From: a virus
Lineage: Duplodnaviria; Caudoviricetes
Direction: 5' to 3' (one strand)
IMG/VR virus record: IMGVR_UViG_2623620552_000001
Span: 18,464 to 82,463 of that record
Length of the DNA: 64,000 nucleotides
Under the pieces are notes generated by a model. The model was not told the origin of the DNA, ran no database searches, and saw nothing but the letters and a program-made list of their open reading frames with translations. Both the position numbers and the translations under genes were made by a program. Positions 1,009-45,088 of this stretch are shown here, piece after piece. Positions within the stretch are counted from its first letter, which is position 1, and every line of letters begins with the position of its first letter.

Positions 1009-1238
1009 CCACGATATGTCACCTTTTCGGAGGTTCTTTATGCCTCCTCGCCAACGCTATACGTTCCAAGGAAGAAGAAGGTTGTATAAAACTACCTTAG
1101 AACACGTCAGCGTAACTTGTATGTATCTTTCCGTGATACTTTCCTTATGGGTGCAAATTGTCAAAGAGCAACGTTTCTAATCTGGCGATTTTTCTAAATT
1201 GTTAATACTTTTTTGTCATTTCTCTTTTTTTTGTTAGG

Positions 1239-1309
1239 CGGAAGCCTGCCGGATTTTCAGAAAGCGACGCTTCCCGATTTCGCTTTTCGCTTCGCTCCGA
1301 CAGGCTCCG
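1239..1309 (-). promoter_or_regulatory. Nested stem-loop downstream of the DGR target gene (candidate DGR target-recognition hairpin)
   Basis: Arms cggaagcctgccgga (1239-1253) and tccgacaggctccg (1296-1309), with inner aaagcga/tcgcttt. No U-tract follows on the coding strand. Confidence 0.55.
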
Positions 1310-1322
1310 GCCCAATGCTTGC

Positions 1323-12970: not shown

Positions 12971-15900
12971 TTATTGTTCGTCAATTTTCTTCCTCATTCT
13001 TACTACCTCGTCGTACATTTCGGGTAATACCCTGGTATTCTCGCTAATTTCGGCAAGATGTGAGTTCATAAGGCCTTGCGTTTCCACCATAGACTGAACA
13101 CCCTCACTGATATTTACTACTCTTGCTCTTGTTTCTCTTATATTGTCGCCTATATCTGTAAGGAGTTCGGTGTGTATCATTGTTTCCGAAAGAGTCTGCT
13201 CTAAGAGAATGGTATGATTCAGTCCGATACCAACAAGGCTGTCTGCTTGGTCGTAGGAAATGTTCTGTATAGAGTTTGCCGTAGCGGATTGTTGGCTACG
13301 AGCATTCTCAATCCTGTCTATGCCTAACTCTCTTAACTGTTCTATTTGGCTGATACCCGAATCAATAACACTTTGGTAACCTCTGTAAAAAGCATCATTC
13401 GCCTCTTGCAAAGCCTTTTTGTCGTTGTTTGCGTTAGCAGCCGATACACTCTTATACCAAGTATCATAGAGAACCTTTAGTTGGTCTTTAAGATTCTGTG
13501 CTACAAGGTTGTTGATAAGCATCCTGTTAACCATCTTCTGCCAACTCTCTGCTATGCTGTCGGTTACATCTTCTACACCATCAGCATAGTCGTAGAGATG
13601 GTTTATCATATCGTCAAAAAGGCTATCAAATGAAGTAGTAAGCATTATCTCGGAAAGTTTCTCCGATGCTTCCTCCATCTCATCGGCGAGGTCAGCCCAT
13701 GCGTTAGCAGCTTTTGAGATACGTCCTTCGTCGTCCCATCCTGTATTAGCAATCTGAAACCATAGTTCTGCGGCTTCGGCATTTCCTTCTTCGGCAAGAC
13801 GACGCAACTCTGCGAGTTTCTTCGCACCTTCATTACCCATCTTAGAAAGTTGTTCAAACAGCCCTTGCCATGCTGTACCATATTCGCCTTCTGATAAGCC
13901 AAGCAAGTTCCTTATTCGCCATACATATCCTCCTTCTCCTTCACCTCCATTCTCGTTTCTATAATACCATTCGCGATGTCGGCGACCATAATAACCCCAA
14001 CCAGCTTCTTGTATCTGACGGTTATACTGTGCAGATTTATTAATGAACTTCTCTAGCAAATCCTCATACTTTGATAATGCGCTTGCACCATAACTTTCTG
14101 ACATCTCGTCAGAAATACGCTTTACACTCTTGTCGATACTTTCAAGGATAGTGTTAGAAGCCTTAATTTCTGCGTCAACTTGCGCTCTTGTATCTTTCGA
14201 GCCAAACCATGAGTCAAAGCCACCAAATGTAACAGCGTTAAGGATATTTCCTATACCTTTCGTTAACGAGCCTGTTATCTGTCCTACAAAATCAAGCGAT
14301 AGAACATTGTCTAAGATACCTGCAACGGCATTTAGAACAGTATCTATGAGATTCGAAATAAGTGTTCCTATTCCGTCTTTTAATATATCAAGAATAGATA
14401 GGATAGCGGAGATTAGTTGTCCGATAAACCCGGCATTGCTAAGAGTGTCGGACAACTTGCTAACAGCCTTTCCTACCTCTCCACCGATATTCAGTTTAGA
14501 GAGGCCATTAAGCATATTCTGAATGCCTTGAAAAGCACCAGAAAGCGTATTGTCGGCAAATCCTCTAAGGCCGTCGGCTACTAAGTTAAGTCCGTCAACG
14601 GTATCTTCTTCTGATTCTCTAAGGCCGTTAGCAAGGTTCTGAACCGCTGTTTGCTGAACTCTAACAGACTCGCTCGCAGCAGTGGCAACTTTTTCCGCTA
14701 AATCAAGACTTATCTTTGCATTTTCAATCTCGGCTTTATTACCAGAATCTAATGCTTTCTTATATCTTTCTTTTGCTTTTTCAAGGTGCTCGGTAGATGT
14801 TATCTCGGCATTCTTTGCTTGTTGGAGCCTATTAATAGCAGCACCAAGACTATCCATCTGCTTCTTTATAGAAGAGAAATTCAGTGTACCTCTGCCCTCA
14901 CCCGTTAGCCCTTTTAATTTTGTTATAGCATCATAGACTACTTTTTGGTCGGCTTCATTCTTCTTTGCAAAACTCGGCTCTCTTACATATTGACGCAGTT
15001 TCTCCAAAGTGGTTCTGAGTTGGTCTCCTAAAAGGTTTGTAAACCCGCCAAGAACAGATTGCCAATCAATACTCTGTTGTAGAGCACTCATATTGACAGC
15101 ATTCTTCTTGCTATTCTCCTCTGCCTTCAACCTAAGAACCTCTCCTTTAAGACCGAGGGCTTCTGCTTTTGCAATCATCTTAGCATACTTCTCAGTAATG
15201 GCAAGTTTTTGTTGTTGGAACGTACCATACTCTATTAGGTATTCTCGCATTGATTGAATTTGCTGTTGCAATTCATTATTCTGCTGACGGGCAATAGTAA
15301 ACTCCTCTAACTTCTTATATTGCTCTTTTATAGCATTAATAGCACTTTGGTCTAACTTTGTTTCATCCCATTGCTCAGGTTTGCCTCCGCGTGCTTTGAT
15401 TATCTTCTCTTGTGCTTCAAACTCGGCTTTTTGACGGGCTCGCTCTGCTTCAATAGCAGCTTTTCGCTGTTCTGCTAACTGCTCTAGTTCTTTTTCAAAG
15501 GAACGATTCTTCTCAGCAAGAACCTTGTCGGCTCCGTCTTTCATTGCAGCAATACGAGCATCAGTGATTCTTTGCTCCATATCCTGCTCTGCTTTTGCTC
15601 TAGCAACGACATTCTTATGGATAATCTCTTCTAACCTTGCCTCGGATTCATCTATCTGCTGTTGCTGACGGGCATCTTTCTTCCCTGCGTTAGCCATTGC
15701 TTTGAGGTTGGACTGTTGCATACGAACAAGCATTCGTGTTGAAGCAGCCCTCTGTGCTTCTAAGGCATAAACAGCGCCTTGTGCTTCTCTTTCTTTTGCA
15801 TAACTTTCGATAGACATTGTATGAAGAGCGTTACGCTCTTTTGTTATGCGGAGAAGTTCTTTCTGAGCCTTAATCTGCCCATCATACTTCTCTTTAAGCA

Positions 15901-18028
15901 TATTCTTTACAAGTTCTATCTGAGCGTCCTTCTCCTTACCTGTGAGGGTGTATATCTTTTCACGCTCTCTGGCAATATCTATTTCAAGTTGTTTTTCTTT
16001 TACCTTGGCTTCAGAAAGTGCTTTCTGTGCGTTAAGTTCTTGTTCTGCTAACTGTGCGGCTTTCTTTGCTCTGCCAAACATATCGGCACCGATAGCACCG
16101 AGGTCAGCTGACCAACCTTGACTAATACCTTCGCCTAAGAGTTTAACTGTTCCTTTTGCTGCTCCGGCAAGAGTGTCCCAACCTGATTTGAGAGTATCAA
16201 CTACCGAGGTGCCTGCTTTCTTTAAATCCTCCCATCCGTTTTTTATTCCTTCTATGGCTTTCTTTGCTTCTGCGACATTCGCTCCTGACGCTATAAGGTC
16301 TATAACGCCTTTGGCAATCTGACCTACACCTGAAAGTGTCTTAGCGACGGCTTTAAGAGGATTAATGACTAAGCCTATTAATCCTTTGCCAAATTGGTTT
16401 AATGCACCTTGTGGGTCGGCGAAAGCGTGGTAAAGATATTTGCCTATCTTTACCGCTATATCCATAAGAGAGGAAAGCAGACTACCGAGATAGGCTGTAA
16501 TCTTAGCAAACGCACGCTGACCTTCCGCATCTTTTTTAAACCACGCAAATATTGCTTGTAATGCTAATACAATAGCACTAAGGACTGCTCCGATAGGTGT
16601 CGCAGCCATCGCCCATAAGGCTTTGGTGAATGCAACGGCACCTCCAGTTGCTGCTGTAAAAGGTGCAACCAGACCGCTAAGAGCGGTTTTCATGTTACCC
16701 AATGAATCTTGGAACTTGCCATTTCTTGTGATTGCATCTACGACACTATTCTTCCATTTTGCGAGGTAGCCACCTGCCCTACCTTCTTCCGACATCTCTT
16801 TCTTTGTGTCGGCAATCTCCTTCTTGAGATTGTTAATCTTTTCTAGAAGTTCTTGTGCTTTCTTAGATTGTTGGTCAAACCCTTGTTTCTCGGCTAACTT
16901 GTCATACTCCTCTTGAAGGGACGCATGCTCTTTCTTAAGGTTCTGTAATCTGTTATGTAACTCGTTAACAGCATTCCATTGTTCTTTGAAAGATGACGAT
17001 GCGGATTGCGAGGACTGATTTTCCTCGTTCTGAGCAGCAGACACTTGTTCCGTAGTAGACAAGAGTCTTGCTTTTGCATCCCTTAATTCATTGAGAGTGT
17101 TGCTATATAGTACGGCTTTCTGCTGTGCCTCTACATAGTCCGCTGACGTTATGTATTCATTCCACTCCTCTCGGCGCTCTCCTTTCTCACCTACGAAGTT
17201 AGTTGTCTTTGCGTTTTCGGCATTGTACAACTCCTGTATCTTAGCAATCAACTCATCGTATTTCTGGATAGCCTTCTGAATATCTCCGTCTTTTGAGAGT
17301 TCTTGGTTTATACTCTCTATCTCCTTATGGAATGGTTGTAGTGCGTCAATAGCCTCTTTTTGGGCTGCCGTTAACTGTTTTTTGCTTTCAACGTTTTCTT
17401 TGGTGGCTTCCGTTTCTTTTGTCATTTCGGAAGCATTAGCAGCGTGCGCACCTGCTTCTACGACAGTAGCAGCAGTTACCGCACCATGAGCGACAGCATT
17501 AGCTGCCGTGCTTACGTTTGCCACACCGAGCATAGAAACGAGTCCGTTATAACCTGCCTCCATTTGCTGAACAACAGCATACTGAGCCTGATAAGCATTG
17601 GTATTGTTATGTATCTGCTGCTCTACACCTGCAATAGAGGTTTTTAACTGATTATACTTCTCTGAGCCTATGACTGAGCCACTTAACTGAGTATTCAGCT
17701 TTGCGAGTTCTTTTTCAAGGTTTGCTGTCGCTGATTCAGTCTGTTGCATCGCTTCTTTGGCAAGACGTATTTGCTCTGGATAGTTTGCAAGTGCCGCTTT
17801 TGCTTCTTCGGTAGCCTGAGCAAACACCTCCATAGCCCGCTTTTGTTTCGTTGCGCTGTCGTCAGTAGACTGTGCTATCTCACGCATTGCATCGCTTACA
17901 CGCTTGCTAAGTGCATCGGTCTTTATGCCAATCTTATCGAGATTGTTTATCATCTCGTTTATAGAGCGGTCTATGTCTGATATATCAAGGTGTCCGCTTA
18001 TACCAAGTATTTCGTCGTTTGCTGCCAT
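12971..18028 (-). CDS. Tape measure protein
   Basis: About 1685 aa, helical/coiled-coil with hydrophobic Gly/Ala patches. Start moved to ATG 18028 (MAANDEILG), just downstream of the promoter at 18054-18062. Confidence 0.88.
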   Translation of the reverse strand: MAANDEILGISGHLDISDIDRSINEMINNLDKIGIKTDALSKRVSDAMREIAQSTDDSATKQKRAMEVFAQATEEAKAALANYPEQIRLAKEAMQQTESATANLEKELAKLNTQLSGSVIGSEKYNQLKTSIAGVEQQIHNNTNAYQAQYAVVQQMEAGYNGLVSMLGVANVSTAANAVAHGAVTAATVVEAGAHAANASEMTKETEATKENVESKKQLTAAQKEAIDALQPFHKEIESINQELSKDGDIQKAIQKYDELIAKIQELYNAENAKTTNFVGEKGERREEWNEYITSADYVEAQQKAVLYSNTLNELRDAKARLLSTTEQVSAAQNEENQSSQSASSSFKEQWNAVNELHNRLQNLKKEHASLQEEYDKLAEKQGFDQQSKKAQELLEKINNLKKEIADTKKEMSEEGRAGGYLAKWKNSVVDAITRNGKFQDSLGNMKTALSGLVAPFTAATGGAVAFTKALWAMAATPIGAVLSAIVLALQAIFAWFKKDAEGQRAFAKITAYLGSLLSSLMDIAVKIGKYLYHAFADPQGALNQFGKGLIGLVINPLKAVAKTLSGVGQIAKGVIDLIASGANVAEAKKAIEGIKNGWEDLKKAGTSVVDTLKSGWDTLAGAAKGTVKLLGEGISQGWSADLGAIGADMFGRAKKAAQLAEQELNAQKALSEAKVKEKQLEIDIAREREKIYTLTGKEKDAQIELVKNMLKEKYDGQIKAQKELLRITKERNALHTMSIESYAKEREAQGAVYALEAQRAASTRMLVRMQQSNLKAMANAGKKDARQQQQIDESEARLEEIIHKNVVARAKAEQDMEQRITDARIAAMKDGADKVLAEKNRSFEKELEQLAEQRKAAIEAERARQKAEFEAQEKIIKARGGKPEQWDETKLDQSAINAIKEQYKKLEEFTIARQQNNELQQQIQSMREYLIEYGTFQQQKLAITEKYAKMIAKAEALGLKGEVLRLKAEENSKKNAVNMSALQQSIDWQSVLGGFTNLLGDQLRTTLEKLRQYVREPSFAKKNEADQKVVYDAITKLKGLTGEGRGTLNFSSIKKQMDSLGAAINRLQQAKNAEITSTEHLEKAKERYKKALDSGNKAEIENAKISLDLAEKVATAASESVRVQQTAVQNLANGLRESEEDTVDGLNLVADGLRGFADNTLSGAFQGIQNMLNGLSKLNIGGEVGKAVSKLSDTLSNAGFIGQLISAILSILDILKDGIGTLISNLIDTVLNAVAGILDNVLSLDFVGQITGSLTKGIGNILNAVTFGGFDSWFGSKDTRAQVDAEIKASNTILESIDKSVKRISDEMSESYGASALSKYEDLLEKFINKSAQYNRQIQEAGWGYYGRRHREWYYRNENGGEGEGGYVWRIRNLLGLSEGEYGTAWQGLFEQLSKMGNEGAKKLAELRRLAEEGNAEAAELWFQIANTGWDDEGRISKAANAWADLADEMEEASEKLSEIMLTTSFDSLFDDMINHLYDYADGVEDVTDSIAESWQKMVNRMLINNLVAQNLKDQLKVLYDTWYKSVSAANANNDKKALQEANDAFYRGYQSVIDSGISQIEQLRELGIDRIENARSQQSATANSIQNISYDQADSLVGIGLNHTILLEQTLSETMIHTELLTDIGDNIRETRARVVNISEGVQSMVETQGLMNSHLAEISENTRVLPEMYDEVVRMRKKIDEQ

Positions 18029-18053
18029 ATTTCTATATTTTTGCGATTTTATC

Positions 18054-18113
18054 GCAAATTTAAGGCTTCTCACGGCGTTTTGGAAATGTTCGAGTATAAG
18101 TATATAAACAAGT
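18054..18113 (-). promoter_or_regulatory. Putative late promoter for TMP: ACTTGTTTA-N42-TAAATTTGC
   Basis: -7 box at 18054-18062 and upstream 9-mer at 18105-18113; the same geometry recurs at six other promoters. Confidence 0.7.
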
Positions 18114-18158
18114 AGCAAAACGCTGTTAGATTGCGTTAAAATAAGTCTTAGGCGGTTT

Positions 18159-22024: not shown

Positions 22025-22525
22025 TCACTTTGCCGTGTTGGTTGAGGGTGGCAACTTTGTTTGTCGCCCTCTAACCGATTTATTAAGGATTAACTTAATC
22101 TTTGCTTTTATCTTCTCTGGATTGCGAGCGTCGTGGTTTGAAAGGCGCACAACGTGATAACCTAAACGCCATATCCCGCTACTTCGGTTAGTGTCTAATC
22201 GTCGTTGCTTAGTAGTAAAATGATACCCTCCATCTAATTCTACTATAGTTTTGATTTCTGGAAGATAAAGGTCTGCAAAATAGATGCGCCTACCTGTGTT
22301 TATAGGATACTGCCTAATAACCTTGTAACCGAGAGCGTTAATTGTACGAAATGTTATTCTTTCTGCTTCGGATGACTTTGCCATTAGGTCTGCACGCCTT
22401 AGACGTAGCCATTGCTCAGATATGCGCTTGCAACAACTTTTCTTCCGTTGGGTGTTTGTGGGCTTTGTACTTCGCGTAAGGAGTTTTTCTGAACTCGCAG
22501 CACACTTCGTATTCTTCGTAATCAT
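22025..22525 (-). CDS. DUF559/Vsr-like endonuclease
   Basis: RQYPI...YFADLY....IVELDGGYH...D..R......GYHVVRLSN. Confidence 0.8.
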   Translation of the reverse strand: MITKNTKCAASSEKLLTRSTKPTNTQRKKSCCKRISEQWLRLRRADLMAKSSEAERITFRTINALGYKVIRQYPINTGRRIYFADLYLPEIKTIVELDGGYHFTTKQRRLDTNRSSGIWRLGYHVVRLSNHDARNPEKIKAKIKLILNKSVRGRQTKLPPSTNTAK

Positions 22526-22537
22526 CTTCCATAGTTA

Positions 22538-22777
22538 CTACTTATTAAAAACTCTCGCCCAGAATCCTCGTTCTCTTAACATAGTGATGTTAAAACGCAA
22601 CTCCTCGATAATCTTGGATTTTACTTCTTTCTCTTCTTCTAAACTCTTCACGCAGCTTTCAAGGAACTTGTTCGTAGACTCAGCAGTCTCCAACTTGGAC
22701 TGAACATTACGCAACTCCGACTCCAAAGCACGATACGCTGTTAGAGATGGCCGAAATCTCTTCTTCTTTTCTTCCAT
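22538..22777 (-). CDS. Coiled-coil hypothetical protein
   Basis: 79 aa ending RGFWARVFNK. Confidence 0.7.
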   Translation of the reverse strand: MEEKKKRFRPSLTAYRALESELRNVQSKLETAESTNKFLESCVKSLEEEKEVKSKIIEELRFNITMLRERGFWARVFNK

Positions 22778-22784
22778 AACTATA

Positions 22785-23090
22785 CTATTTATTATATTTG
22801 ATATGCTGCTTTTTCATTAAATCTATGATAAGGTTCTGCATCTTTTCTAATACAAACTCTTTGGTTTCTATCTCTCTGATAAAAAGGGGATGAAAATGAT
22901 ACTTAACATTATTGTAAAAAATGTCGTCTTTCTCTTTTCCTTCTGATACTTTCACCATTATGCGGAACTTAGGAACATAGATGTCCGCTTTAACAGGTGT
23001 CTTGCCTTTGAAAGTAGTAAAGAAATGAATCTTTTTCTCTGTAAGGAAGTTAACAAGAACATCTAATTTTGCTTTTTGGTTATTTGTCAT
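22785..23090 (-). CDS. Hypothetical protein, possibly a degenerate Vsr-like fold
   Basis: KADIYVPKFRIMVKV resembles the ADLYLPEIKTIVEL segment of its neighbours but lacks the ExDG..H motif. Confidence 0.55.
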   Translation of the reverse strand: MTNNQKAKLDVLVNFLTEKKIHFFTTFKGKTPVKADIYVPKFRIMVKVSEGKEKDDIFYNNVKYHFHPLFIREIETKEFVLEKMQNLIIDLMKKQHIKYNK

Positions 23091-23095
23091 TGTTC

Positions 23096-23560
23096 TTATT
23101 GTTTTATGTTAAACTTATTTGCGTTTATCTTCTCGTATATCATCTTAAGTTGTTCTCTTTGTCTCTTTAGCCTCTCTTTTCGGTTTTCACTTAGAACTAC
23201 TTTTTCTTTCTTTTTATTCTTGCTATCTTTAATAGCCTCATATAGGGATTGAACAATTATTCTATCGTAACATTCACTATTTGAGATTCGAAGTGTTTTA
23301 ATACCCTTCTTCTTTAGAATAAAATCCCTTTCTTTGTCCTTTTCTTGTCTCTGAGAATGAGAACTTCCGTCTATCTCTATTGCAACTTTATAATCTTTTA
23401 TGTATATATCAATAAAATACTGGTGCGTTCCGCTTTTTACATAGTATTGGCAAATTGCTTTCTTCTTTAACTTAGGAGGAAGATGTGAAAATATCCACTC
23501 TTCTTCTCTTGTTCTGCTTTCTAAGAGCTTTTTTCTTGTAGTCTTTGCCCAATTATTCAT
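23096..23560 (-). CDS. DUF559/Vsr-like endonuclease
   Basis: YFIDIY....VAIEIDGSSH....KDKERD..L...GIKTLRISN. Confidence 0.8.
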   Translation of the reverse strand: MNNWAKTTRKKLLESRTREEEWIFSHLPPKLKKKAICQYYVKSGTHQYFIDIYIKDYKVAIEIDGSSHSQRQEKDKERDFILKKKGIKTLRISNSECYDRIIVQSLYEAIKDSKNKKKEKVVLSENRKERLKRQREQLKMIYEKINANKFNIKQ

Positions 23561-23589
23561 TATTATATATGTTATAATATTTTACTACT

Positions 23590-23989
23590 GGAAGCCTTCT
23601 GCGAGCATACGAGAGTTTTACAGGGGTTTCATCCCCTCCGAACTCTCATTGCGTGCTTACTGACTGTTGAGCCCCATAGCATCACACACGGCCTAAAGCA
23701 ACATTGCTACTCTTCGGCTAACGGTTTTAGCGGCTTTGTCGCCAGGCACGAGGGTAATCCGTCCAAGTTCCAACCTCTCCGCCGTGTGCTGCCCCTTGCG
23801 GTAGTTTATAGTCCAATGATGCGGGGTCAAAACTCTCAAAAATGCCTTCTTACATCAGACTTAGGAATCATAAAATGAAACCCCGAAAGCACTGGAACTA
23901 CTTTCGAGGTTTTATCGTATAGCCTTTCGGCGATTTACTTCTTATTCTCAGCAATAAGTTCCAGTTATCGCTTTCAAGGTGCAAAATTA
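23590..23989 (-). ncRNA. Candidate large structured non-coding RNA/leader
   Basis: About 400 nt with no ORF in the track, GC-richer than its flanks, with several nested stems and a - strand TAATTTTGCAC promoter at about 23979-23989. Confidence 0.6.
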
Positions 23990-24116
23990 ATAGTAAATTC
24001 TCATTTTAGCAAGGAAATTCTCTAAAAATATCTTAAATATCTCCGTGTTTTACTAAAATAATATTAATTTATTAAGTTTTTTCTCTCAATCTTAATATTA
24101 TCTGAAACATTATTAT

Positions 24117-24195
24117 TAATTTTGGAGTGTAAAAGTTAATAATTAATAGAGAATAGTTTAACAATACATTATTAATATAAGGAGATACAACAATG
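24117..24195 (+). promoter_or_regulatory. Early-type promoter TAATTTTGGAGTG plus AGGAGATACAACA-ATG leader
   Basis: Promoter and/or leader recur at 24322, 29354-29398, 32891-32944, 34489 and, on the - strand, at 48393, 48681 and 61299. Confidence 0.75.
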
Positions 24196-24318
24196 AAAAA
24201 AGACCCAATGAATCCAATGACTTGGAATTCCGACCAATGGAAAGACGCTCTTATCGGAGCAGTATTAACATCCTTCCTTCTTGGAATGGTATCAGTAGTA
24301 ACATTTATTTTTCACTAA
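24193..24318 (+). CDS. 41-aa single-TM peptide
   Basis: MKKDPMNPMTWNSDQWKDALIGAVLTSFLLGMVSVVTFIFH, preceded by the conserved leader. Confidence 0.7.
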   Translation: MKKDPMNPMTWNSDQWKDALIGAVLTSFLLGMVSVVTFIFH

Positions 24319-24336
24319 TTTATAGGAGATACAACA

Positions 24337-25293
24337 ATGAAGATTAATTCTTTCGGCTCAATGCCACAGTCAGAGATTGCTCCCGTAGCAGTAGTAGAGG
24401 AAGTTCGGAACGAGAATCAGTTCTTCGATTTCGAGAAAGCCAAAGTCCAGGAATTATCCTTGGACCAGTTAAAGCGCACCGTAAAGGAGAATCGCGGCGA
24501 TGACCGCACCTGTCCTCACGGTATCTATCATTTCGCCCTTGTTCAGCAGATATTGGATATGTGCGCTGAACACGGCTACAACGCAGAGGTTTACGACCTC
24601 TTTGCCACTAACAACCGAGACAAGCAAACTCCCGGTGTTTCCCTTAACCCTGAGATTGAAGCAAAATACGGTGAGCGTGCCGTAGAGGCTCACACCCTTC
24701 GTCGAATCTATGCCAACATCCGATTGAAGGACTTCGATACAGACGAGGTGACAACCAATCTTGCTGTTGCCTATACTCAGAAAGGTATTCAGTTAGGGTT
24801 CGGACGCAACGTAATGGTGTGTCACAACCAGTGTATGCTGGGTAGCGGACGTTTTATCTCGGATTATCAGTGTCGCAAGGACACAGCGAAAGCAACCTTA
24901 CAAGGTATGCTCCAGACCGTAGGCTCATGGCTTACCAACGCTCAGAATATCACCATTGAGGACGATGCCACTATCGAGAGAATGAAAAGCAGCATTCTTA
25001 CCGCCGAGCAGATCTATACTATCCTCGGTATGCTGATGTCTATCCGTGTCGCCCACGACACCTCTGTAAAGTCTATCCGCTATAACGGCGAGGTCTATCC
25101 TCTGAATCAGGCGCAACTCTCTCAGTTTACCGAGAACCTGCTTGTCAAGCAGAAGGAAGAAGGTCGCATCACCGCATGGTCGTTCTACAATGCGGCTACA
25201 GACCTCTACAAGCCACAGAGTGCTGAAACGAATATGATTATGCCTCAGAACCTCTCAATGATAGAGTTTATGCGAGCACAGGAAATATTCTAA
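24337..25293 (+). CDS. DUF932-like phage protein
   Basis: 318 aa; GRNVMVCHNQC and C-terminal TAWSFYNAAT pattern. Confidence 0.65.
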   Translation: MKINSFGSMPQSEIAPVAVVEEVRNENQFFDFEKAKVQELSLDQLKRTVKENRGDDRTCPHGIYHFALVQQILDMCAEHGYNAEVYDLFATNNRDKQTPGVSLNPEIEAKYGERAVEAHTLRRIYANIRLKDFDTDEVTTNLAVAYTQKGIQLGFGRNVMVCHNQCMLGSGRFISDYQCRKDTAKATLQGMLQTVGSWLTNAQNITIEDDATIERMKSSILTAEQIYTILGMLMSIRVAHDTSVKSIRYNGEVYPLNQAQLSQFTENLLVKQKEEGRITAWSFYNAATDLYKPQSAETNMIMPQNLSMIEFMRAQEIF

Positions 25294-31834: not shown

Positions 31835-32731
31835 TTATTTTAACACATAGTAAACTGCTTTTAGAGGGAGAAGCAGTCTATCTTCTTCGGAAAGTAGTTC
31901 GTAATTATCAATCCATAACTTTACTAACTCCGTAGAACCTATGAGACGTATGTTGCTTTTGTGTTCTCGGGCAAAACGGATAGCCTCGTTGGTAAATGTA
32001 CCTGAAGAGAAAACAATGCCCGTATCGCCGTCTTTTTTTAGTAATGCCGCAAGGTTACGAACTACGGTAACATCTATTGCGGTAGTTGGCATATGTTTCA
32101 CTTGTGCGATGATGCGCTGCCCTACCCCAGCAGCATTCTCATAAGCTACAATGTCTATTCCTCCGTCTTTGCCTTTAGGCGCAATGAAAGGTGTATAGTA
32201 ACCCATACCACGCAAAAGTGTTGCACATAAGTCCTGGAACTCATAAGGGTTCATCGCTTTTATTCTCTTGCTGATACCTTCTTGTGCCGTACTTTCGGCT
32301 TCCGCTACTATTATTTCGTCTGTCAGTTCCGAAACCTCTTCTACATCTTCGTCTATCGTTTCGTGCTTATCATTCTCTTTCTGATATTGACGATAAGCCG
32401 TATGTGCGATTTCAAACACTTGCTGCGGTGTCAAGGCGAGTGCTTTTTCTCCTTCTTCGGTAAGATACCATACACCTGCGTCTTTTCTTATCAGACCTGC
32501 CTTAACATACTCTACAGAATAGAAAACGGAGTTTACAAACCAACGTGGCTGCGGTGTCTTTTCTGACGTGTTAGCACTCTCCCAATCATTGAATGTTAAG
32601 ATAGTTGGTATCTTCTCCTTGATTGCCGCAAAAGACATTGTACCCTCGTTTTGCTTTATCAGCTTCATTGCTTCATACATAGTCCTTGCGACAACGGAAG
32701 CCGACCTTGATAGTTCTTTGTTTTCGCCCAT
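31835..32731 (-). CDS. mrr: Mrr-family (type IV) restriction endonuclease
   Basis: Mrr_N-like winged helix (G.W.LTEEG) and catalytic P.EF.DL....L.GMGY...DGGID...QVK; own TACCTTTGC promoter at about 32756-32764. Confidence 0.85.
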   Translation of the reverse strand: MGENKELSRSASVVARTMYEAMKLIKQNEGTMSFAAIKEKIPTILTFNDWESANTSEKTPQPRWFVNSVFYSVEYVKAGLIRKDAGVWYLTEEGEKALALTPQQVFEIAHTAYRQYQKENDKHETIDEDVEEVSELTDEIIVAEAESTAQEGISKRIKAMNPYEFQDLCATLLRGMGYYTPFIAPKGKDGGIDIVAYENAAGVGQRIIAQVKHMPTTAIDVTVVRNLAALLKKDGDTGIVFSSGTFTNEAIRFAREHKSNIRLIGSTELVKLWIDNYELLSEEDRLLLPLKAVYYVLK

Positions 32732-34531: not shown

Positions 34532-35290
34532 ATGAGAGGTGCAATTATCGGTGATATTATCGGTTCAAGATTTGAGTTTAACAACCTCAGAGAAAAAGAG
34601 TTCGACTTCTTTACAGAAGAATGTGACTTTACAGATGATACAATATGTACGGTAGCTATAATGGAAGCTATCTTGGAAAATGATTTGGATTACGCAAGGC
34701 ATTTACAGAAGTGGTGTAGAAAATATTCTTTCCCGAAAGGCGGATATGGAGCGTCTTTTGCCCAGTGGGTCAACAATCCCAATCCTCAGCCTTACAACAG
34801 CTTTGGCAATGGTGCGGCAATGAGAGTTAGTCCTGTTGCATGGGCTTTCAATACGGTAGGAGAGACTATTTCTCAGGCTATCGCTACCGCTAACGTATCA
34901 CATAACCACCCCGAAGGCATCAAAGGTGCTATCGCCACTGTTCACGCCATAATGCGCCTTGAAGCATCTAAGGATAAGACACAAGCAATAATTACAGAGC
35001 AGATGTATTACGACCCATTCCAGTCTTATGAAAGAGGGAGGTTCGACGAAACCTGTCAAGGTACAGTTCCCGTTGCTCTAAGAATAATAGACGATAGTTC
35101 TTCTTTTGAAGATGCAATGCAACTCACAATGCAATGGGGAGGAGATAGCGATACGCTCGGTGCTATCGTTGGCGGTATGGCAGAAGCCCTCTATGGCGTA
35201 CCAGAATATCTGTGGTCGCAAGCAGAGGCATTCTTGCCCTTTGAAATGAAGATGATAATTGAAGAGTTTTATAAAAGGTTTGTAATATGA
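34532..35290 (+). CDS. ADP-ribosylglycohydrolase (DraG/ARH family)
   Basis: GAIIGDIIGS, FTDDT, SFGNGAAMR, SHNHPEG and GGDSDT motifs. Confidence 0.93.
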   Translation: MRGAIIGDIIGSRFEFNNLREKEFDFFTEECDFTDDTICTVAIMEAILENDLDYARHLQKWCRKYSFPKGGYGASFAQWVNNPNPQPYNSFGNGAAMRVSPVAWAFNTVGETISQAIATANVSHNHPEGIKGAIATVHAIMRLEASKDKTQAIITEQMYYDPFQSYERGRFDETCQGTVPVALRIIDDSSSFEDAMQLTMQWGGDSDTLGAIVGGMAEALYGVPEYLWSQAEAFLPFEMKMIIEEFYKRFVI

Positions 35291-35616
35291 AAAGAGAAGA
35301 TTTAATCAAGCAATGCCGCTATTACAGCGGAGAAGAGGTGTGTCCTTTTACAGAAGAGAGGATGCAATGGTTCTGGGATATGGAAAGGGTGTATGTAGAG
35401 ACCGAAGGTAAGTTTGTTGGAGAAACGGAGACCTATCATAAACTCGACGGACGGAGATACACAGGCATCCCTCATAACTTACTAATGGTAATGTTCACAG
35501 GATGGGCAAAGTATACCGCTGATATGGAAAAGCATTTAGAGGATTTCTATGACCTTATGGAGGTATATCTTGATATAGTAAGCGACCATATCTCAAAGAC
35601 GGCAATACCGGGTTAG
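35287..35616 (+). CDS. Hypothetical protein, candidate immunity partner of MuF-ART
   Basis: 109 aa (CRYYSGE..CPF...FWDMER); coupled to the hydrolase, and its stop overlaps the MuF stop. Confidence 0.6.
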   Translation: MKREDLIKQCRYYSGEEVCPFTEERMQWFWDMERVYVETEGKFVGETETYHKLDGRRYTGIPHNLLMVMFTGWAKYTADMEKHLEDFYDLMEVYLDIVSDHISKTAIPG

Positions 35617-38273
35617 TAACCGATATTGCTGTCTAATACATAAGAGAGGTCTTTAATCTCTTGACCCACGATTTCAACATCTATATAGGTCTTATATCCG
35701 TCGTTATAGACTTTCGTTATTCTCATTTTTGTTCCTCTCTGGAAGAGCGTTTCATCTTCTCTACTAAACCTTTTATATCTTGTTACTCCGTCCCACTTAA
35801 CGCTTTGGGCTCCTTCTCCAAACTGACTAAAAGGCTCTACATAGGCAGCTTTCGTCCCTTTAGGTGCAAAGATATTAATTACGACTTCATTACTACTGAA
35901 TCCTGAACTACGACGTGAACCAGTACTCATAAAACCGCCCTCTTGCATTGTCATACCAACAAGGTCTTCTATCTTATTGGGCCACTTGCCGCCGGCAAAC
36001 TCTATTCGTGAACGGATAACAGATATATCTCTATCGCCACGCATGAACCACATATCTTTTGGCAGAGGGTTTCTTTCAATGTATCGGGTTATGAGATTGA
36101 CCTTTGTTTCAAAGTTTGTCCTTGATTGGCTGCCTACATAGCGGCGACCTTGCAACGGCTCATTCTTGTCGCAATAATGGTGTGTATATTCATATATCTT
36201 CTCTCGCTCCATTTTTGTTGCTGCTTGCCATGCTTTTGAAGCGGTTGGGAAGAGGGTATCGTCAGCAAGTTGTCCGTTGCCAGTGTCCCATACGGCGGCT
36301 TTCTTTCTCTCTTCGCTGAATATCTCGCTAATACCTTTCCCTTTCTTAGCATAACCTCTATCATATTCTATCTGTTTCTTCTTGGCTTCGGCTTTACTTA
36401 GAAGTTCCTGTGCAGCATTAAGGTCTGACTTACTTGATACAGCAGATTCTATATCGCTCAGTATATTGTTAAACGGTACGCTCTTAGTATCAAAGGCTTT
36501 AAGTTCTGTCAGTGCGCTTTCTATCTTCTGCCAATCAATGATAGATTGTGTTTCCTTTATGAGTTTCAGATATGCGCTCTCGGCAACTTTTGATGTAGGA
36601 TAAAGGTTGTGAGGTTTGAGATAAGTGCTATCAACGACATACAATGCTTCTGAATTAAGTTTAGAGAGCAAGTATTCCTCTAACGAAGCATATTTTGATT
36701 TAAGATAGCTGTTCGTCGCATAGTTGCCGCTCCATTTTGCAACATTATTACTAACAACTTTTTCTACTTCCTTAATATCGGAGAGAGAGAATTGTTTTAA
36801 CCATTCCCTTGCGTCAGGAACTGTCTTTTCTATCAATGCCGCCTCTTTGTTTATTCTTGCTATCTCCTTTGCAAGAGCTCTACTATATTCCCTTGTAGCA
36901 ATAGTATCGCCTTTGATAATAGCATTACGAAGCATTGACTTCATGCCGATTGTTTCGGTGTATTCGAGTTTGTCGGCAACCTGCCAAACATTCTTACCTG
37001 TCTTAATGATAAGGGCATTCTTTGCTTTTCGTTCATCCCAACGGCGCTGAATGTCTGCCTTTTCGGCTTCTGTCTTAACTCTCTTAACCCTTGCGATACT
37101 TGGCTGATAACCCATTTTAAGAAGTTCCTCGGGCGAAAATTGCTTGCCCACATACTTCATATTATCACGCCAAATCCAACCAAGTTTTCCACGTTCACCA
37201 GCGGATATAAACTTATCCCTGTTAGCATCAATCCACTGCTTTGCACGGTCAGGTAAATCTTTGACAGCATTCGGAGAAACATATCCGCTCATATCCTCGC
37301 CAGCAGCCAAACGGCGATAAAATTCCTTCTTCTCCTCTCCTTGTATTGTGATGGGATTAGACATACAAAGGCATTGTGGGTGCCAACCCGTGAAGATAAA
37401 GTCTTTCGGGTAGCGTCCAGCCAGTTCGTCGCACTCGTCTGGTGCAGGGTGTTGTGGCGACAAGTCTATAACAATGCCGATGACAAACGGCTCCATCTGC
37501 CATCGTTCCGCATTGGCACGGTGGTAGGCTCCGTTTATCTCTGTCCGCATCAGTCTGTCAGCGTTCCGCTTTGACGAGCGATAATGACCCATACCGACTT
37601 TTTCCAATGGCTCTTCTACGAAACGTACTTTTCCGTTCTCGTCCACAATACGTCTGCGCCACTTTACAACATCTTTCTTATTGCCTTGTGCATCGACTAC
37701 GGTACGATGATAGCGGCGATACATCATATCGGGGTTATTAAGATACTGACGGACTTGCAAACCGAGTGATGCCGCACTTGTGCCTTTCTTTAATCCGTCA
37801 GCAAGGACATTCGACACTGCCATCTCAAACTCCGCTTTCGTCTGAGAGCAATAGTTCCAAACAAGTTGAGAGAGGTTTAATCCTTCGGAGGTTTTTAGGC
37901 GATTGCGAATAAACGTTTCTGCGGCGGTATTTCTTGCTTGGCTTATTGCTTTATTGGAGAGGATAGAAAAACCCGAGAGAACCGCATTATCGTGCGAATA
38001 CGCCAATGCTACGCCATCTGTTATGCCGGCACGATAGGCTAACATATCCTTTTGAACGTAATCAGAGAAGATTTCGTTGAGTTCCTCACGTAATTCGGGA
38101 TAGTTGCCGAAGCGATAGAGCACATTCTTCTCTAAGAAGTCCTCTACACCAACACCTGACTTATGAGCAATAACGGTAAGGCGGTCTATGAACTTGTCAT
38201 AGAGGGTTTCAAGGCGCTTGGAGTAAGCACCAAACATTGCCGTTAGTTGTTTCCGTTTCTGCTCGTTTGTCAT
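35613..38273 (-). CDS. MuF/SPP1 gp7-like minor head protein with C-terminal ADP-ribosyltransferase toxin domain
   Basis: RLMRTEIN.AY, CDELAG.YPK.F.F.GWHPQC.C (MuF); C-terminal MRG...GFMSTG...REDETL (R-S-E clade ART with ExE). Confidence 0.88.
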   Translation of the reverse strand: MTNEQKRKQLTAMFGAYSKRLETLYDKFIDRLTVIAHKSGVGVEDFLEKNVLYRFGNYPELREELNEIFSDYVQKDMLAYRAGITDGVALAYSHDNAVLSGFSILSNKAISQARNTAAETFIRNRLKTSEGLNLSQLVWNYCSQTKAEFEMAVSNVLADGLKKGTSAASLGLQVRQYLNNPDMMYRRYHRTVVDAQGNKKDVVKWRRRIVDENGKVRFVEEPLEKVGMGHYRSSKRNADRLMRTEINGAYHRANAERWQMEPFVIGIVIDLSPQHPAPDECDELAGRYPKDFIFTGWHPQCLCMSNPITIQGEEKKEFYRRLAAGEDMSGYVSPNAVKDLPDRAKQWIDANRDKFISAGERGKLGWIWRDNMKYVGKQFSPEELLKMGYQPSIARVKRVKTEAEKADIQRRWDERKAKNALIIKTGKNVWQVADKLEYTETIGMKSMLRNAIIKGDTIATREYSRALAKEIARINKEAALIEKTVPDAREWLKQFSLSDIKEVEKVVSNNVAKWSGNYATNSYLKSKYASLEEYLLSKLNSEALYVVDSTYLKPHNLYPTSKVAESAYLKLIKETQSIIDWQKIESALTELKAFDTKSVPFNNILSDIESAVSSKSDLNAAQELLSKAEAKKKQIEYDRGYAKKGKGISEIFSEERKKAAVWDTGNGQLADDTLFPTASKAWQAATKMEREKIYEYTHHYCDKNEPLQGRRYVGSQSRTNFETKVNLITRYIERNPLPKDMWFMRGDRDISVIRSRIEFAGGKWPNKIEDLVGMTMQEGGFMSTGSRRSSGFSSNEVVINIFAPKGTKAAYVEPFSQFGEGAQSVKWDGVTRYKRFSREDETLFQRGTKMRITKVYNDGYKTYIDVEIVGQEIKDLSYVLDSNIGY

Positions 38274-39431
38274 TTACCTCTTCTTTTTCTTTTTCAATGT
38301 ATTCAGAATATACTCCTTACTAACGCTTGCAATAGTGCGAGTATTCTTATTGCTTGCTCTTGTAAAATTGACAAGACATTTGCCAAACTCCTCTGAATTA
38401 ACCGCACCGCTATCCTTGAAAGCCATAGCACGCATGGAGCCACCCCATATCTTATGATTACGAAGAAACTCCGTTCCGCAGCATTCGGCACCGCAACCAT
38501 AACGGCTGCTGATAAGGTTGTCGGCATTGAAGAACTTTACTCCGTGCTTCTTTCCGAGATAGGTATAGGTGGAAAGCATACTACGTTTACTTTCCTCGTT
38601 ATATACCCTATCGCCACTCTCTATCGTTCCATTCTTCTTAAAGTAGCCGAGGACATCATAGCCAAGAGCGTCGCCAATCTTCTTGTAGATTTGCTTCTCC
38701 TTGCCTGATGCGATAACTCTTATCTTCAAGCCTTCCGTTTCAAAGCCCCATGCACCACATTCTTTAAGCATACCAATGAAGCGGTCTGCTACCTTTTCCG
38801 AGTAAGGCAAGATAAAAGGCTGAATACGGACTGTAATACGGAAGCCCATCTCCGATAGTTTCTTAATAGCAGCAAACCTGCGAGAGGGTGATATTGCGCC
38901 ACATTCAATCTGTCGTGCTATATTATCGTCACAGAATGAGCAACTGACATTAAGGGCGATGTTTGAATTCTTAAACTCCTCGGCATAAGAAAGAAATACT
39001 TCGGGGTTCTTGGTGGAAATCTGCACTGGATAGTCAATCTTATCAAACACCTTTAAGCAATCATAGGTGATATGCTCCCATTTCTCTACCACAGGAAAAG
39101 GGTCTGCCGTAGCACCAATCTTTACAGGAATGCGCTCTTTGAAAGCCACTTCGGCTGCTTTGGTGTAGTCATAAGGACTGGCAAGCGTCTTTTCTACCCA
39201 GCGCACAAGCCCTTTCGGGTCATTGCCCTCCAAATATGATTGTTTTCGGTGTTCTTCGCTCTGATTTCTGCGAGTAAACTCAATGAAATCCCTTGCAAAG
39301 CAGAACAAGCAACCATAAGTGCAGCCCCTATAAGTATCGAAATGGAACGGTATCGGACAGACACAGAACTGACTTGTAACACTCGGTGCCCAAAACTTCC
39401 TCTCTATCTTTCTTTCTCTTTCGTCTGCCAT
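38274..39431 (-). CDS. Radical SAM protein (SplB-like)
   Basis: DTYRGCTYGCLFC (CxxxCxxC), G...DPF, STK and RIQP motifs. Confidence 0.85.
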   Translation of the reverse strand: MADERERKIERKFWAPSVTSQFCVCPIPFHFDTYRGCTYGCLFCFARDFIEFTRRNQSEEHRKQSYLEGNDPKGLVRWVEKTLASPYDYTKAAEVAFKERIPVKIGATADPFPVVEKWEHITYDCLKVFDKIDYPVQISTKNPEVFLSYAEEFKNSNIALNVSCSFCDDNIARQIECGAISPSRRFAAIKKLSEMGFRITVRIQPFILPYSEKVADRFIGMLKECGAWGFETEGLKIRVIASGKEKQIYKKIGDALGYDVLGYFKKNGTIESGDRVYNEESKRSMLSTYTYLGKKHGVKFFNADNLISSRYGCGAECCGTEFLRNHKIWGGSMRAMAFKDSGAVNSEEFGKCLVNFTRASNKNTRTIASVSKEYILNTLKKKKKR

Positions 39432-39511: not shown

Positions 39512-41005
39512 TTATTCTTCTACTCCGTTACTTGTTCCTCCTATTCCCATAGCTTCTTGTGCCTGTTTGAGTGCTTCGGCTTCCTCTTCTTTAATCTCCT
39601 CTTCAATGAGTGCCGGATCATCATTGATAGGATTAAGAGCGATAGCTCTGCGACGAGAGGTCGTTTGCTTGCCGCCTACGGACTTACTAATAAGCTCCAA
39701 CTCCTCTACCTCATTCTTTGGCATATAGGGCGTAAATACAGGCTCAAAATCCGTTTCATCAGCTACACTCATAGGAATACCACTTTCGATGATTCCTGTA
39801 TTGCATATACCATTGGCAACAATGTTGCTCCGACGGGTAAACATCTCTCCAAAGAGTTCGGTTTCTGTCTGGGCGTCCATGTGAGGGTCGGTAAACATCA
39901 GTCGGATTGCCGCACCACTTGTATTGTTACCAACCTCTTTCATTCGCTCAAAACTGATGTCTGCCGAATGAGTATAAGAATATATCATAGAGAAAAGGTT
40001 AGCAAGTTCACCTGTAACGCTGACGGGGGAGTTATCCCATGACAACATCTTCATATCGGTATCTTTCTCGCCTTGGAAGACAGCGCCCTGCTCTCCTTTC
40101 TCTGCGAAGCCGTTTAGCTTACCTTTGACAAAGTACTTTGGTACTCCGAAGTAATCATTTGTATCTCCCCAGTTGGAGGTCAAATCCTCGGCACGCTCAA
40201 TCTCGGATTGCACATCTTCCCACTTTGCCTGCTCTCTACGGTAGTAGACAATAGGAATCTTTGTAAAGCCGTGCATCTTTGGAGAACCTTCCTGTAGCTT
40301 CCATCCGTTGCTGTCATTAATGAACTGATAGACAAAACGGTCCGTATATACGTCAAAATGCTCTTTAGACACACCCTCTTCGTCATAGACTTTGTACCGA
40401 CGGGCGAATCCGTCCATGTTGTCATAGTCATTGAAATGCGGATAGAGTCTGTCGCCAAGAACAGGAGCAAGCAGCTTGACACGCATCTTGCCTTTTCTAT
40501 TGATAGTTCCATCAGGGTTGGTTTCCATATACCATAATTCGGCGGCTTCCCTCTGACGGAATACTATACGAGCAAGTTTCTTGTCGAAATATCGCATCTT
40601 GTTATGATGATAGACTTTCTTAACTGCGCCAAATAGCGTTTGTTGTTTGTCTGTCGTTTTCTTCAACTCTACACCGTTCTGTGTTATCTTATAATCAGCA
40701 GGTATGCCGAAGAGAAAACCCACAGCTCGCTCTACGATAGATTTCTGTACAGGAATAGCAATGCGAACCCGCTCAACTTTCTTAGTTTTATAAATTGTCT
40801 TACCAGTCTGCGGGTCTTTTTTGTTTGTAGGAACCTGTATTGCTTTCTTTGGACGATAGTTCTCGTCAAAGATTTTGTGTTGTTTGGGGTCGTACTGCGC
40901 CTCTATTTCTTCAAGGGATGTCTTGAAAGGCTTCTTTCTTGCTGTAAGCAGTCGAATGACCTTATCAGGTTCGTTAATATTAACTATTTCTGTAATATTT
41001 CTCAT
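39512..41005 (-). CDS. Portal protein (SPP1 gp6-like)
   Basis: 497 aa; FTKIPIVYY, SGAAIRLMF.D, acidic C-terminus; upstream of MuF. Confidence 0.88.
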   Translation of the reverse strand: MRNITEIVNINEPDKVIRLLTARKKPFKTSLEEIEAQYDPKQHKIFDENYRPKKAIQVPTNKKDPQTGKTIYKTKKVERVRIAIPVQKSIVERAVGFLFGIPADYKITQNGVELKKTTDKQQTLFGAVKKVYHHNKMRYFDKKLARIVFRQREAAELWYMETNPDGTINRKGKMRVKLLAPVLGDRLYPHFNDYDNMDGFARRYKVYDEEGVSKEHFDVYTDRFVYQFINDSNGWKLQEGSPKMHGFTKIPIVYYRREQAKWEDVQSEIERAEDLTSNWGDTNDYFGVPKYFVKGKLNGFAEKGEQGAVFQGEKDTDMKMLSWDNSPVSVTGELANLFSMIYSYTHSADISFERMKEVGNNTSGAAIRLMFTDPHMDAQTETELFGEMFTRRSNIVANGICNTGIIESGIPMSVADETDFEPVFTPYMPKNEVEELELISKSVGGKQTTSRRRAIALNPINDDPALIEEEIKEEEAEALKQAQEAMGIGGTSNGVEE

Positions 41006-43981: not shown

Positions 43982-45088
43982 CTACTTTGCAACCTCGTCG
44001 GTTTTGAGGATAAAGTAGTCGTTGATACCGTTGAATACGGGCTGAGCCCACATATCATAGTCGGTATGACGACCTGTGTTATCACGCCAGTAACCTACAA
44101 GGTTATCATCATAAGTAGAGTAAGTCTTGCCAGGCAGCGGATCAACCAACTCCAGCGGGTCTGAAATCTTCATCACAGCCACAGTCGGAGCGCACTGGAA
44201 TACCACGCGGTTGTCAACTGTCATGTTGATGCTCGTTCCGTCTGCGAGAGCGACGAAGCGGTCCGGCTCAATGCTGATAGTCGGCAGAAGAACTGAGCGC
44301 AGATAGATATTCACCTGCTCTACAGAGAGCATAGGAACAGCCTGCTGAACAGTTACCTGTCCGAGGTTCAGACGGAATGTGCTCTTAATCTCGTCAGACT
44401 GACACATATTATAGAATGTATCTTCCGACATACGAACACGCTGGATGGTGCGACCTTTAGACTTTGCATACTTTACAACCTGACGGATGTCAGCAATAGG
44501 AGTAGCATCAGCATCGCCCCACGCTTTACTACCTTTCACGCACTGGAACTTCTTAACGTCAAGGTCAAACTTATAGCTTACGTTAGCCTTTACGTTGTTC
44601 TGACGGCTTACAGTCTGTGTGCCGTTGAACAAGCCCTCAAAATAGAGCATATCAAGACGCTTCTGAGGAGCGATGACAGCCTTTTCAAAAGGACGGAAAG
44701 CAAAGGTAATAAGTTTGTCATACTCGGCGCGATTCTGCTCCTCGGTGTAGTTAGGCCTACGGTTACGGAAACGACCTTCGAGGTAGTTCAACTGCTCGAT
44801 ATAGTCGTTATCCAGTTCCCATTGGTCGCCATAGTGACCGATAGAGCCGAGCAACTCACCAAAGTCGGGCATCTGGTGTACGGGTTTCTCTCCGTTCTTG
44901 GAGATTACCGAACCTGCCAGTGCAGCCTGATACTCTGCCAATGTTGCCTTATACTGCTTGGCTGCCTCATAATCAATCTGATTGATTTCATCCTTCCACA
45001 AAGCCTTGTAAGTGGAGGTTTTCATGTACTCTTGTACGAATGCGTCAAAAGCCTTAGGCTCCTGAATCTGCTTAAGAATTGAATTCAT
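43982..45088 (-). CDS. Major capsid protein (lambda gpE-like)
   Basis: 368 aa; W.DADATPIADI motif; follows scaffold and decoration genes. Confidence 0.82.
   Translation of the reverse strand: MNSILKQIQEPKAFDAFVQEYMKTSTYKALWKDEINQIDYEAAKQYKATLAEYQAALAGSVISKNGEKPVHQMPDFGELLGSIGHYGDQWELDNDYIEQLNYLEGRFRNRRPNYTEEQNRAEYDKLITFAFRPFEKAVIAPQKRLDMLYFEGLFNGTQTVSRQNNVKANVSYKFDLDVKKFQCVKGSKAWGDADATPIADIRQVVKYAKSKGRTIQRVRMSEDTFYNMCQSDEIKSTFRLNLGQVTVQQAVPMLSVEQVNIYLRSVLLPTISIEPDRFVALADGTSINMTVDNRVVFQCAPTVAVMKISDPLELVDPLPGKTYSTYDDNLVGYWRDNTGRHTDYDMWAQPVFNGINDYFILKTDEVAK

Follow-up and report, generated by a model that had tools for sequence, protein, structure and literature searches.

A structured non-coding RNA of two modules behind a leftward promoter in a Bacteroidales prophage

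The stretch of DNA analysed here, hereafter the window, comprises 64,000 nucleotides (nt) (positions 18,464 to 82,463 of the virus record IMGVR_UViG_2623620552_000001) and lies on contig C24 of a genome that is 3.37 Mb in size and 95% complete. C24 carries a temperate siphovirus-like Bacteroidales prophage of the gut/rumen type. This report concerns an RNA encoded on the minus strand of the prophage, between a rightward block of small genes, mostly of unknown families (starts at 24193 and 24337), and a short leftward operon (23560-22025). Read on the minus strand from position 24000, the region consists of a -7 promoter box, a leader of ~100 nt, a U-rich tract, a core of ~280 nt and a spacer of 24 nt, followed by an open reading frame (ORF) of 154 amino acids (aa). 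The core (23864-23585) has a G+C content of 0.52, compared to 0.19-0.35 in its flanks. The segment 23585-23975 is a genuine structured non-coding RNA built of two modules, the leader and the core, and we consider it very probable that this is a real, new and self-standing RNA module.

A sequence-only reading of this DNA had placed a minus-strand promoter near 23985, and a -7 box, TAATTTTG, is indeed found there (23989-23982). It is of the TAnnTTTG type, which we take to be the Bacteroidetes-type -7 promoter consensus, and transcription should start a few bases past the box, at about 23978. A divergent promoter with the same box faces the rightward genes, and the leftward and rightward promoter regions show inverted similarity to each other. 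The coordinates of these and other features are collected in Table 1.

Table 1. Positions in the window of the RNA, its helices, the neighbouring genes and other prophage genes (bp, base pairs)
Feature	Position	Strand	Remarks
Leftward promoter -7 box	23982..23989	-	TAATTTTG; TAnnTTTG type; sole such box on the minus strand in 23500-24400
Leader module	23878..23975	-	Long irregular hairpin; covariation of 7-bp helix, folding z, terminator scan
U-rich tract	23870..23880	-	UUUCAUUUUAU, after the leader hairpin; U7 in L009
Core RNA	23585..23864	-	~280 nt; alignment A3, 4 distinct sequences; nine helices
Core helix	23861-23853/23818-23810	-	AGUCYGRUG/CAYUGGACU, 9 bp, one double change
Core pseudoknot	23846-23842/23749-23745	-	GGCAU/GUGCC to AGCGU/GCGCU, two double changes
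Core helix	23785-23782/23691-23688	-	
Core helix	23763-23759/23724-23720	-	
Core helix	23744-23740/23732-23728	-	
Core helix	23717-23707/23701-23692	-	
Core helix	23681-23678/23657-23654	-	Encloses invariant 13-mer GGGCUCAACAGUC; UGCU/AGCA in the window, GUUCC/GGAAC in L013
Core helix	23648-23642/23616-23610	-	
Core helix	23637-23633/23626-23622	-	
DUF559/Vsr-like nuclease, 154 aa	23096..23560	-	30% G+C; Pfam PF04480, E 1.5e-11, 44.6 bits
101-aa ORF	22785..23090	-	Probably degenerate DUF559-like copy; BLASTP to 166-aa protein
79-aa coiled-coil-like ORF	22538..22777	-	Weak coiled-coil Pfam matches, below cut-off only
DUF559/Vsr-like nuclease, 166 aa	22025..22525	-	Pfam PF04480, E 7e-12, 45.6 bits
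Divergent rightward promoter -7 box	24117..24124	+	TAATTTTG; serves 41-aa and 318-aa genes
Tape measure	12971-18118		Prophage gene
Portal	39512-41005		Prophage gene
Major head protein	43982-45088		Prophage gene
Large terminase	48836-50026		Prophage gene
Integrase	62621-63832		Prophage gene

Twelve related viral loci were found by way of the neighbouring 318-aa gene, and in two of these, L009 and L013, the RNA lies at the same place and in the same orientation (82.6% identity over 436 nt and 69.6% over 293 nt, respectively). A close variant is present on a metagenome contig, L052, and two more metagenome records match L009 and L013 both in score and in their alignment. The total is four distinct sequences, window included, from three lineages of related phages. 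The site is conserved, the RNA being divergent from the 318-aa gene, and each of the four copies has a promoter box immediately in front of the RNA: TAATTTTG recurs just upstream of it in L052 and L009, and a box of sequence TAACTTTG stands directly before the core in L013. Relatives of the 318-aa gene come from assemblies labelled Prevotellaceae, Muribaculaceae-type and other Bacteroidales, plus one Faecousia.

The RNA family is rare. The wider homologue search consisted of exact-pattern scans plus one metagenome scan. No homologue was found by blastn among 50,697 phage records, and blastn against 400 genomes of the host family returned seven short matches (20-67 nt; E 4.6e-4 to 8e-3), none of which fits covariance model R1. 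Model R1 found nothing in 150 genomes of the order, and none of 44 candidate loci re-screened with it could be added. Pattern scans, four over viral and two over genome contigs, gave no further homologue; every additional pattern match failed the profile screens, and those inspected were chance matches within coding sequence. The RNA was present at none of five loci of the 318-aa gene in genome contigs, and the gene of the 101-aa ORF, used as an anchor in viral contigs, led to no relatives. Since most related loci lack the RNA, it is dispensable. With four distinct sequences, the rarity of the family limits both the statistical case and the general importance of the RNA.

The core helices were assembled from stacks that are paired in all four sequences of alignment A3. 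Among the copies the core is 70-83% identical, with long invariant words, and the flanks do not align. The core model comprises 53 pairs, and 98.6% of its 212 cells are standard pairs. Seven pairs are changed on both sides, compared to 1.7 ± 1.2 in shuffles, and none of 500 shuffles reached seven. When the partners were slid by 1-3 columns, 0-2 double-changed pairs were counted. A nested model from RNAalifold has 77 pairs, nine of them with double changes. Support is best for five helices: the 9-bp helix, the pseudoknot and the helix around GGGCUCAACAGUC (Table 1), a hairpin that changes from UGGCG/CGCUA to GGGCA/UGUCU with two double changes, and the terminal hairpin of the core, whose tip varies in length. 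Invariant words lie in predicted loops and junctions, among them GGGCUCAACAGUC (23674-23662), ACCCCGCAUCA, GACGGAU and AAACCGU. Several invariant words have more than one possible partner: GAGAGUUU could pair with AAACUCUC, GGAACU or GGGCUC. Similarly, GUGC (23749-23746) can pair with GCAC (23789-23786) instead of with its pseudoknot strand.

The sequence-only reading had drawn two structures in the core. Its second long hairpin corresponds to the helices 23648-23642/23616-23610 and 23637-23633/23626-23622 of our model. Its large nested domain survives in part. The GCACACGG/CCGUGUGU arm is consistent with the alignment, in that one-sided changes keep the pairing (only 4 bp of it are kept in L013), but the CCCC/GGGG and GCAUC/GAUGC arms have no double changes and leave 5 of 36 cells unpaired. 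Tested together, all three helices of the domain leave 6 of 65 cells unpaired, and a change at alignment column 204 is compensated in another helix, 23681-23678 with 23657-23654. Two further candidates, a look-alike of an 11-nt tetraloop receptor (CCUAAG/UAUGG) and a stretch of 10 nt in which the leader tail is complementary to the tip of a core hairpin, are confined to the window lineage and were treated as chance for that reason.

Other lines of evidence also indicate a folded, non-coding RNA. The 406-nt region 23585-23990 folds better than its shuffles (z -2.65; none of 100 as good), and it contains no conserved ORF on the minus strand and no tRNA or tmRNA. A covariance-model check links the RNA to no known Rfam family: there was no match in the whole window at gathering threshold (Rfam 15, 4227 models), only chance-level matches (E 2-9) were returned at E<=10 for 23300-24400 and 23580-23880, and none was obtained at E<=1 for the homologous loci L013, L009 and L052. 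The literature searched, supplements of Rfam-source papers apart, does not describe the RNA. Conserved G-U pairs in many helices point to the minus strand as the functional one and, together with GNRA loops, argue for a function in RNA rather than DNA. Covariation, invariant words and the same placement in three phage lineages argue for a functional structured RNA and not a spacer.

The sole long open frame lies on the plus strand. It spans the whole core in the window and in L009 (93 codons) and is broken by a stop in L052 and in L013; in L009 it is a 110-aa ORF with a start codon, and in the window it has no usable start. The substitutions lack codon periodicity, indels of 1, 2, 3 and 4 nt set L013 apart, Pfam has no match for the frame, and a search of 5.8 billion clusters gave just one predicted protein that corresponds to it. 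The plus-strand segment 23528-23878 (L009:3269-3601), stop-free over the core in two of the four copies, was called as a protein once by gene callers. The frame opposite the RNA is a likely source of a spurious 'hypothetical protein'.

The leader is present in three of the four copies. L013 is without it, and because the promoter box of L013 directly precedes the core, we regard the core as a self-sufficient unit. The minimum-energy fold of each leader is one long hairpin that ends in GCUUUC(GGGG) and is followed by a U-run, with a z of -4.2 to -4.9 for the leader alone in the three homologues (-4.7 listed for the window leader). In the outer closing helix an invariant GAAAGC (23975-23970) pairs with GCUUUC (23890-23885). 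A 7-bp helix joins CUGGAAC (23964-23958) to its complement ~70 nt downstream, GUUCCAG (23898-23892). This helix reads GUUCCAG/CUGGAAC in L052 and GUACCAC/GUGGUAC in L009, and both sides are changed in five of the seven pairs among the three sequences with all cells paired. An inner hairpin, GCC-GNRA-GGC (23931-23922), has the loops GAAA, GCAA and GUAA across the three copies.

A rival local hairpin pairs CCUCGAAAG (23909-23901) with CUUUCGGGG (23889-23881). It was detected with the U-run by the terminator scan (23912-23878) and, as read from the alignment, all three copies that have a leader preserve it: it tolerates an A-to-G change in L009, and in L052 an insertion is compensated (CCCUCG.../...CGAGGG). 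Both leader pairings named in the sequence-only reading thus exist, and they would be mutually exclusive, because the connecting loops would be 2 nt. The switch that had been read into them is not evident: GCUUUC, the 3' strand before the U-run, is paired in both forms, so that neither can be assigned as 'on', and the long-range form of L009 already makes a perfect G+C-rich stem ahead of U7. The leader has the G+C-containing hairpin and U-run of a putative intrinsic terminator; in L009 the stem ends in GGGG and is followed by U7. It is possible that the leader is an attenuator, a constitutive terminator with regulated read-through, or a processing hairpin.

The genes behind the core differ between the copies. 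Directly behind the RNA, the window and L052 have the 154-aa DUF559 gene, L009 has a gene of the 101-aa type, and L013 has a Cys-rich ORF of 80 aa. Relative to L009 (L009:3160-3290), the window and L052 carry an insertion of ~460 nt that is exactly the 154-aa ORF and lies in the short spacer separating the RNA from the 101-aa-type gene; the 154-aa gene is a cassette that was inserted later, as is characteristic of free-standing mobile nuclease genes. T-even phages carry free-standing homing endonuclease genes of the GIY-YIG or HNH type. The 154-aa cassette resembles these as a low-G+C nuclease ORF set precisely in a short spacer in some relatives only, but it is DUF559/Vsr-like.

The leftward operon had been described as two ExDGxxH nucleases and one degenerate copy, a description that holds. 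Both the 154-aa and the 166-aa proteins match the Pfam DUF559 model well above its curated cut-off of 20.6 bits, carry the motif as EIDGSSH and ELDGGYH, respectively, and are homologous to each other (E 1e-10). The 101-aa protein aligns to the 166-aa protein over 39 residues by BLASTP (E 0.002), with ELDGG replaced by KVSEG. Pfam gave no match that would place it in DUF559, and it is probably a degenerate relative of that family.

The RNA is uncatalogued, lies directly behind a promoter of the early-left type and is independent of the identity of the downstream gene. The reading we prefer, tentatively and with less than even confidence, is an operon-head RNA module that would act in cis on its own transcript. 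The leader hairpin and U-run would attenuate or gate transcription, or be a processing site, and the leader would limit or time the entry of polymerase. Polymerases that pass the leader would transcribe the core and run on into the small leftward genes, since the terminator scan gave no terminator-like site between the core and the next ORF. The core would then be a folded domain on its own transcript that affects elongation, processing or stability of the leftward operon, whichever gene comes next, and it may in addition be excised as a stable RNA. The position of the RNA and its presumed co-transcription with the operon give cis action a slight preference; in view of the invariant loops and the pseudoknot, action after release, as a stable RNA or a ribozyme, is almost equally likely.

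Several observations weigh against this reading. The alignment holds only four sequences from three related lineages, three of the four being close to one another, and the counts lean toward structure because the helices were picked on the same alignment that was used for counting. The RNA is missing from 10 of the 12 related viral loci and from all five genome loci. The terminator-like leader precedes the core, which therefore cannot serve as its sensor, and the lasting pairing of GCUUUC in both conformers leaves no clear on/off switch. The RNA lacks the boxA word of the rrn leader of the host genus and is not repeated on the rightward operon, for which reason known RNA antitermination schemes do not fit. 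Finally, an RNA that acts in trans or as a catalyst would account equally well or better for the strong sequence invariance of the predicted loops.

Known operon leaders offer partial parallels. HK022 putL and putR are antiterminator RNAs of ~70 nt, with two stem-loops, on both early operons. The present RNA resembles them as a folded RNA right behind a phage early promoter at the head of a leftward operon, and put also acts whatever gene follows. Unlike put, its core is ~280 nt long, contains a pseudoknot and occurs in single copy, and its terminator-like hairpin is upstream of the core, not downstream. A large folded leader RNA at the start of an operon is also found in the boxB-boxA-boxC leaders of the rrn type. 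The boxA word of the host genus, GUUCUUUGAAAA, is common to the rrn leaders of two genomes from that genus; its best matches in the four RNAs have 3-5 mismatches and lie in non-conserved places, and antitermination of the rrn boxA type was rejected.

Instead of acting in cis, the RNA might be a stable, trans-acting non-coding RNA (a protein-binding scaffold, a decoy or a ribozyme) that is made early from the leftward promoter and released by processing, possibly at the leader hairpin. We consider this only slightly less likely than cis action. Long invariant single-stranded words in predicted loops and a pseudoknot with two double-changed pairs would suit such an RNA, as would its size and ornateness, which are typical of RNAs acting by their fold, the interchangeable downstream genes and the L013 promoter directly before the core. 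Yet no terminator-like site follows the core, and no conserved complementary target emerged in phage or host: 10-mer matches were at chance level, numbering 40 compared to ~33 expected by our own estimate, and a blastn-short search of the host matched only the locus itself. No ribozyme or ribonucleoprotein (RNP) RNA in Rfam matched. A hammerhead-like CUGAUG word was rejected, as it falls within a covarying helix and differs in L013. Like the present RNA, ROOL (RF03087), GOLLD (RF01998) and HEARO/omega RNA (RF02033) are large, multi-helix, conserved RNAs of phages or mobile elements, with unknown or RNP functions; unlike them, the present RNA is smaller, and it matches none of them even at E<=10.

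More speculatively, and in our judgement rather improbably, the ~280-nt core could be the first example to be seen of a new class of phage RNAs, large and pseudoknotted, whose action depends on their fold. It might, for instance, be a self-processing ribozyme by which the 5' end of the early-left transcript matures, or it might present a decoy or a scaffold to a host factor. It would then be part of a wider, unnamed habit of phages of opening early operons with big structured RNAs. If confirmed, the RNA would add a new family to the short list of large structured phage RNAs and give a Bacteroidales example of a recurring pattern in which big folded RNAs stand right behind early promoters.

It is unlikely that the RNA is a riboswitch-like or attenuator element, in which the leader (a three-way junction as opposed to the local terminator hairpin) or the core would sense a metabolite, an ion or a phage protein. 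Such an element would account for the conservation of two mutually exclusive leader pairings, the covariation of the 7-bp helix, the survival of the local hairpin through the compensated L052 indel, and the 5' untranslated position of a hairpin plus U-run. However, L013 has no leader, both conformers keep the 3' half of the terminator stem paired, and the long-range form in L009 is already a perfect G+C-rich stem ahead of U7. The controlled genes are heterogeneous and not metabolic, and neither a match to a known riboswitch family nor a leader peptide was found.

The sequence-only reading had also offered the idea of a nuclease-associated RNA, that is, a guide, cofactor or mobility partner of the DUF559/Vsr-like nucleases comparable to omega RNA with IscB. 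A gene of the DUF559 family, or like it, does lie within one gene of the RNA in all four copies, but these come from related phages that share synteny, the 154-aa gene is a later insertion, and the nearest intact DUF559 gene in L009 is ~2.9 kb and seven ORFs away. Homologues of the 166-aa type appear in the ORF lists of L009, L013, L010 and L017. In L010 this nuclease occurs without the RNA. L017 was the one RNA-less relative inspected closely, and there the gene is preceded by a TAACTTTG box of its own and by no folded element. No guide-like variable segment is evident, the variable 7-mer of the leader pairing inside the RNA, and the literature search gave no link between DUF559 and non-coding RNA. 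No gene of the IscB/TnpB type was found among the ORFs scanned, and the neighbours are DUF559 or of unknown family, which does not correspond to HEARO/omega RNA. The variable next gene, the late insertion of the cassette and the occurrence of the 166-aa type without the RNA all argue that the RNA is not tied to the nucleases, and we rate the association as very improbable. An attractive link is thus corrected: the Vsr-like nucleases behind the RNA are best seen as ordinary phage or mobile genes, not as its partners.

Group I introns with EDxHD/Vsr-like homing endonucleases and the GIR1 lariat-capping ribozyme likewise combine a folded RNA with a neighbouring Vsr-like gene and have a pseudoknotted core of a few hundred nt. 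The present RNA differs from both in that it has no exons, which excludes an intron, that a promoter is directly upstream, and that the nuclease cassette is outside the fold and was inserted later. No match to RF00028 (P3-P9 core) or GIR1 was obtained at E<=10, and the downstream genes are complete and differ between lineages.

Also very improbable is a replication origin or primer RNA, as had been suggested from the sequence. The RNA adjoins a very A+T-rich (19-26% G+C) divergent-promoter region, and it is correct that no replication initiator is recognisable among the ORFs scanned, which is not in itself evidence for an origin. On the other hand, there is no iteron family, only A+T-rich look-alikes; G/C skew tracks gene orientation with no origin-specific turn at the locus; the conserved G-U pairs and GNRA loops argue for an RNA function; and absence from most of the related viral loci would be odd for an origin. 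A non-coding RNA linked to a reverse transcriptase (RT), of the retron, diversity-generating retroelement (DGR) or UG type, was rejected because the genome has a single RT match, which lies at a distance of ~23 kb and is part of a DGR. For the idea that the RNA mimics a CRISPR repeat, no CRISPR array was found in the assembled genome. Very improbable, too, is that the element has no function, as a decayed gene or a chance fold: the plus-strand frame left open across the core in two copies, one of them with a start, could be taken for a decayed gene, but the stops in L052 and L013, the missing start in the window, the frame-shifting indels, the lack of codon periodicity and of a Pfam match, the single protein among all clusters and the compensatory changes largely refute this reading.

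Several other features of the prophage were recorded. In the rightward block an identical 18-nt word, AGGAGATACAACAATGAA, is found at 24180-24197 and 24324-24341, where it precedes and starts both the ORF of a 41-aa membrane peptide (24193-24318) and the 318-aa ORF (24337-25293), forming a duplicated translation start region. The DGR occupies window positions 1-3314, with the RT ORF at the left edge (RT match C24:18374-18826, to window ~363). Its 110-nt template repeat (899-1008) has a variable copy (1383-1492) at the 3' end of the gene for a 663-aa tail protein; the repeats differ at 21 positions, each of which is an A in the template and has become G in 10 cases, C in 7 and T in 4.

Genes of the 7-deazaguanine (preQ0) pathway lie on the minus strand at 51959-56194: GTP cyclohydrolase I (51959-52573), a possibly QueE-like radical SAM protein (52578-53177), QueC (54300-54953) and a queuine tRNA-ribosyltransferase-like protein (55448-56194). 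This gene set suggests that the phage DNA may be modified. A gene for a restriction endonuclease of the Mrr type (Mrr_N plus Mrr_cat) lies inside the prophage at 31835-32731 (minus strand). An ADP-ribosylglycohydrolase-like gene (34532-35290, plus strand) adjoins an 886-aa fusion of a minor-head protein and a Bxa-type ADP-ribosyltransferase (35613-38273, minus strand). Two paralogous radical SAM proteins, both of PHROG 13321 (38274-39431 and 50553-51416, minus strand), flank the head-packaging module.

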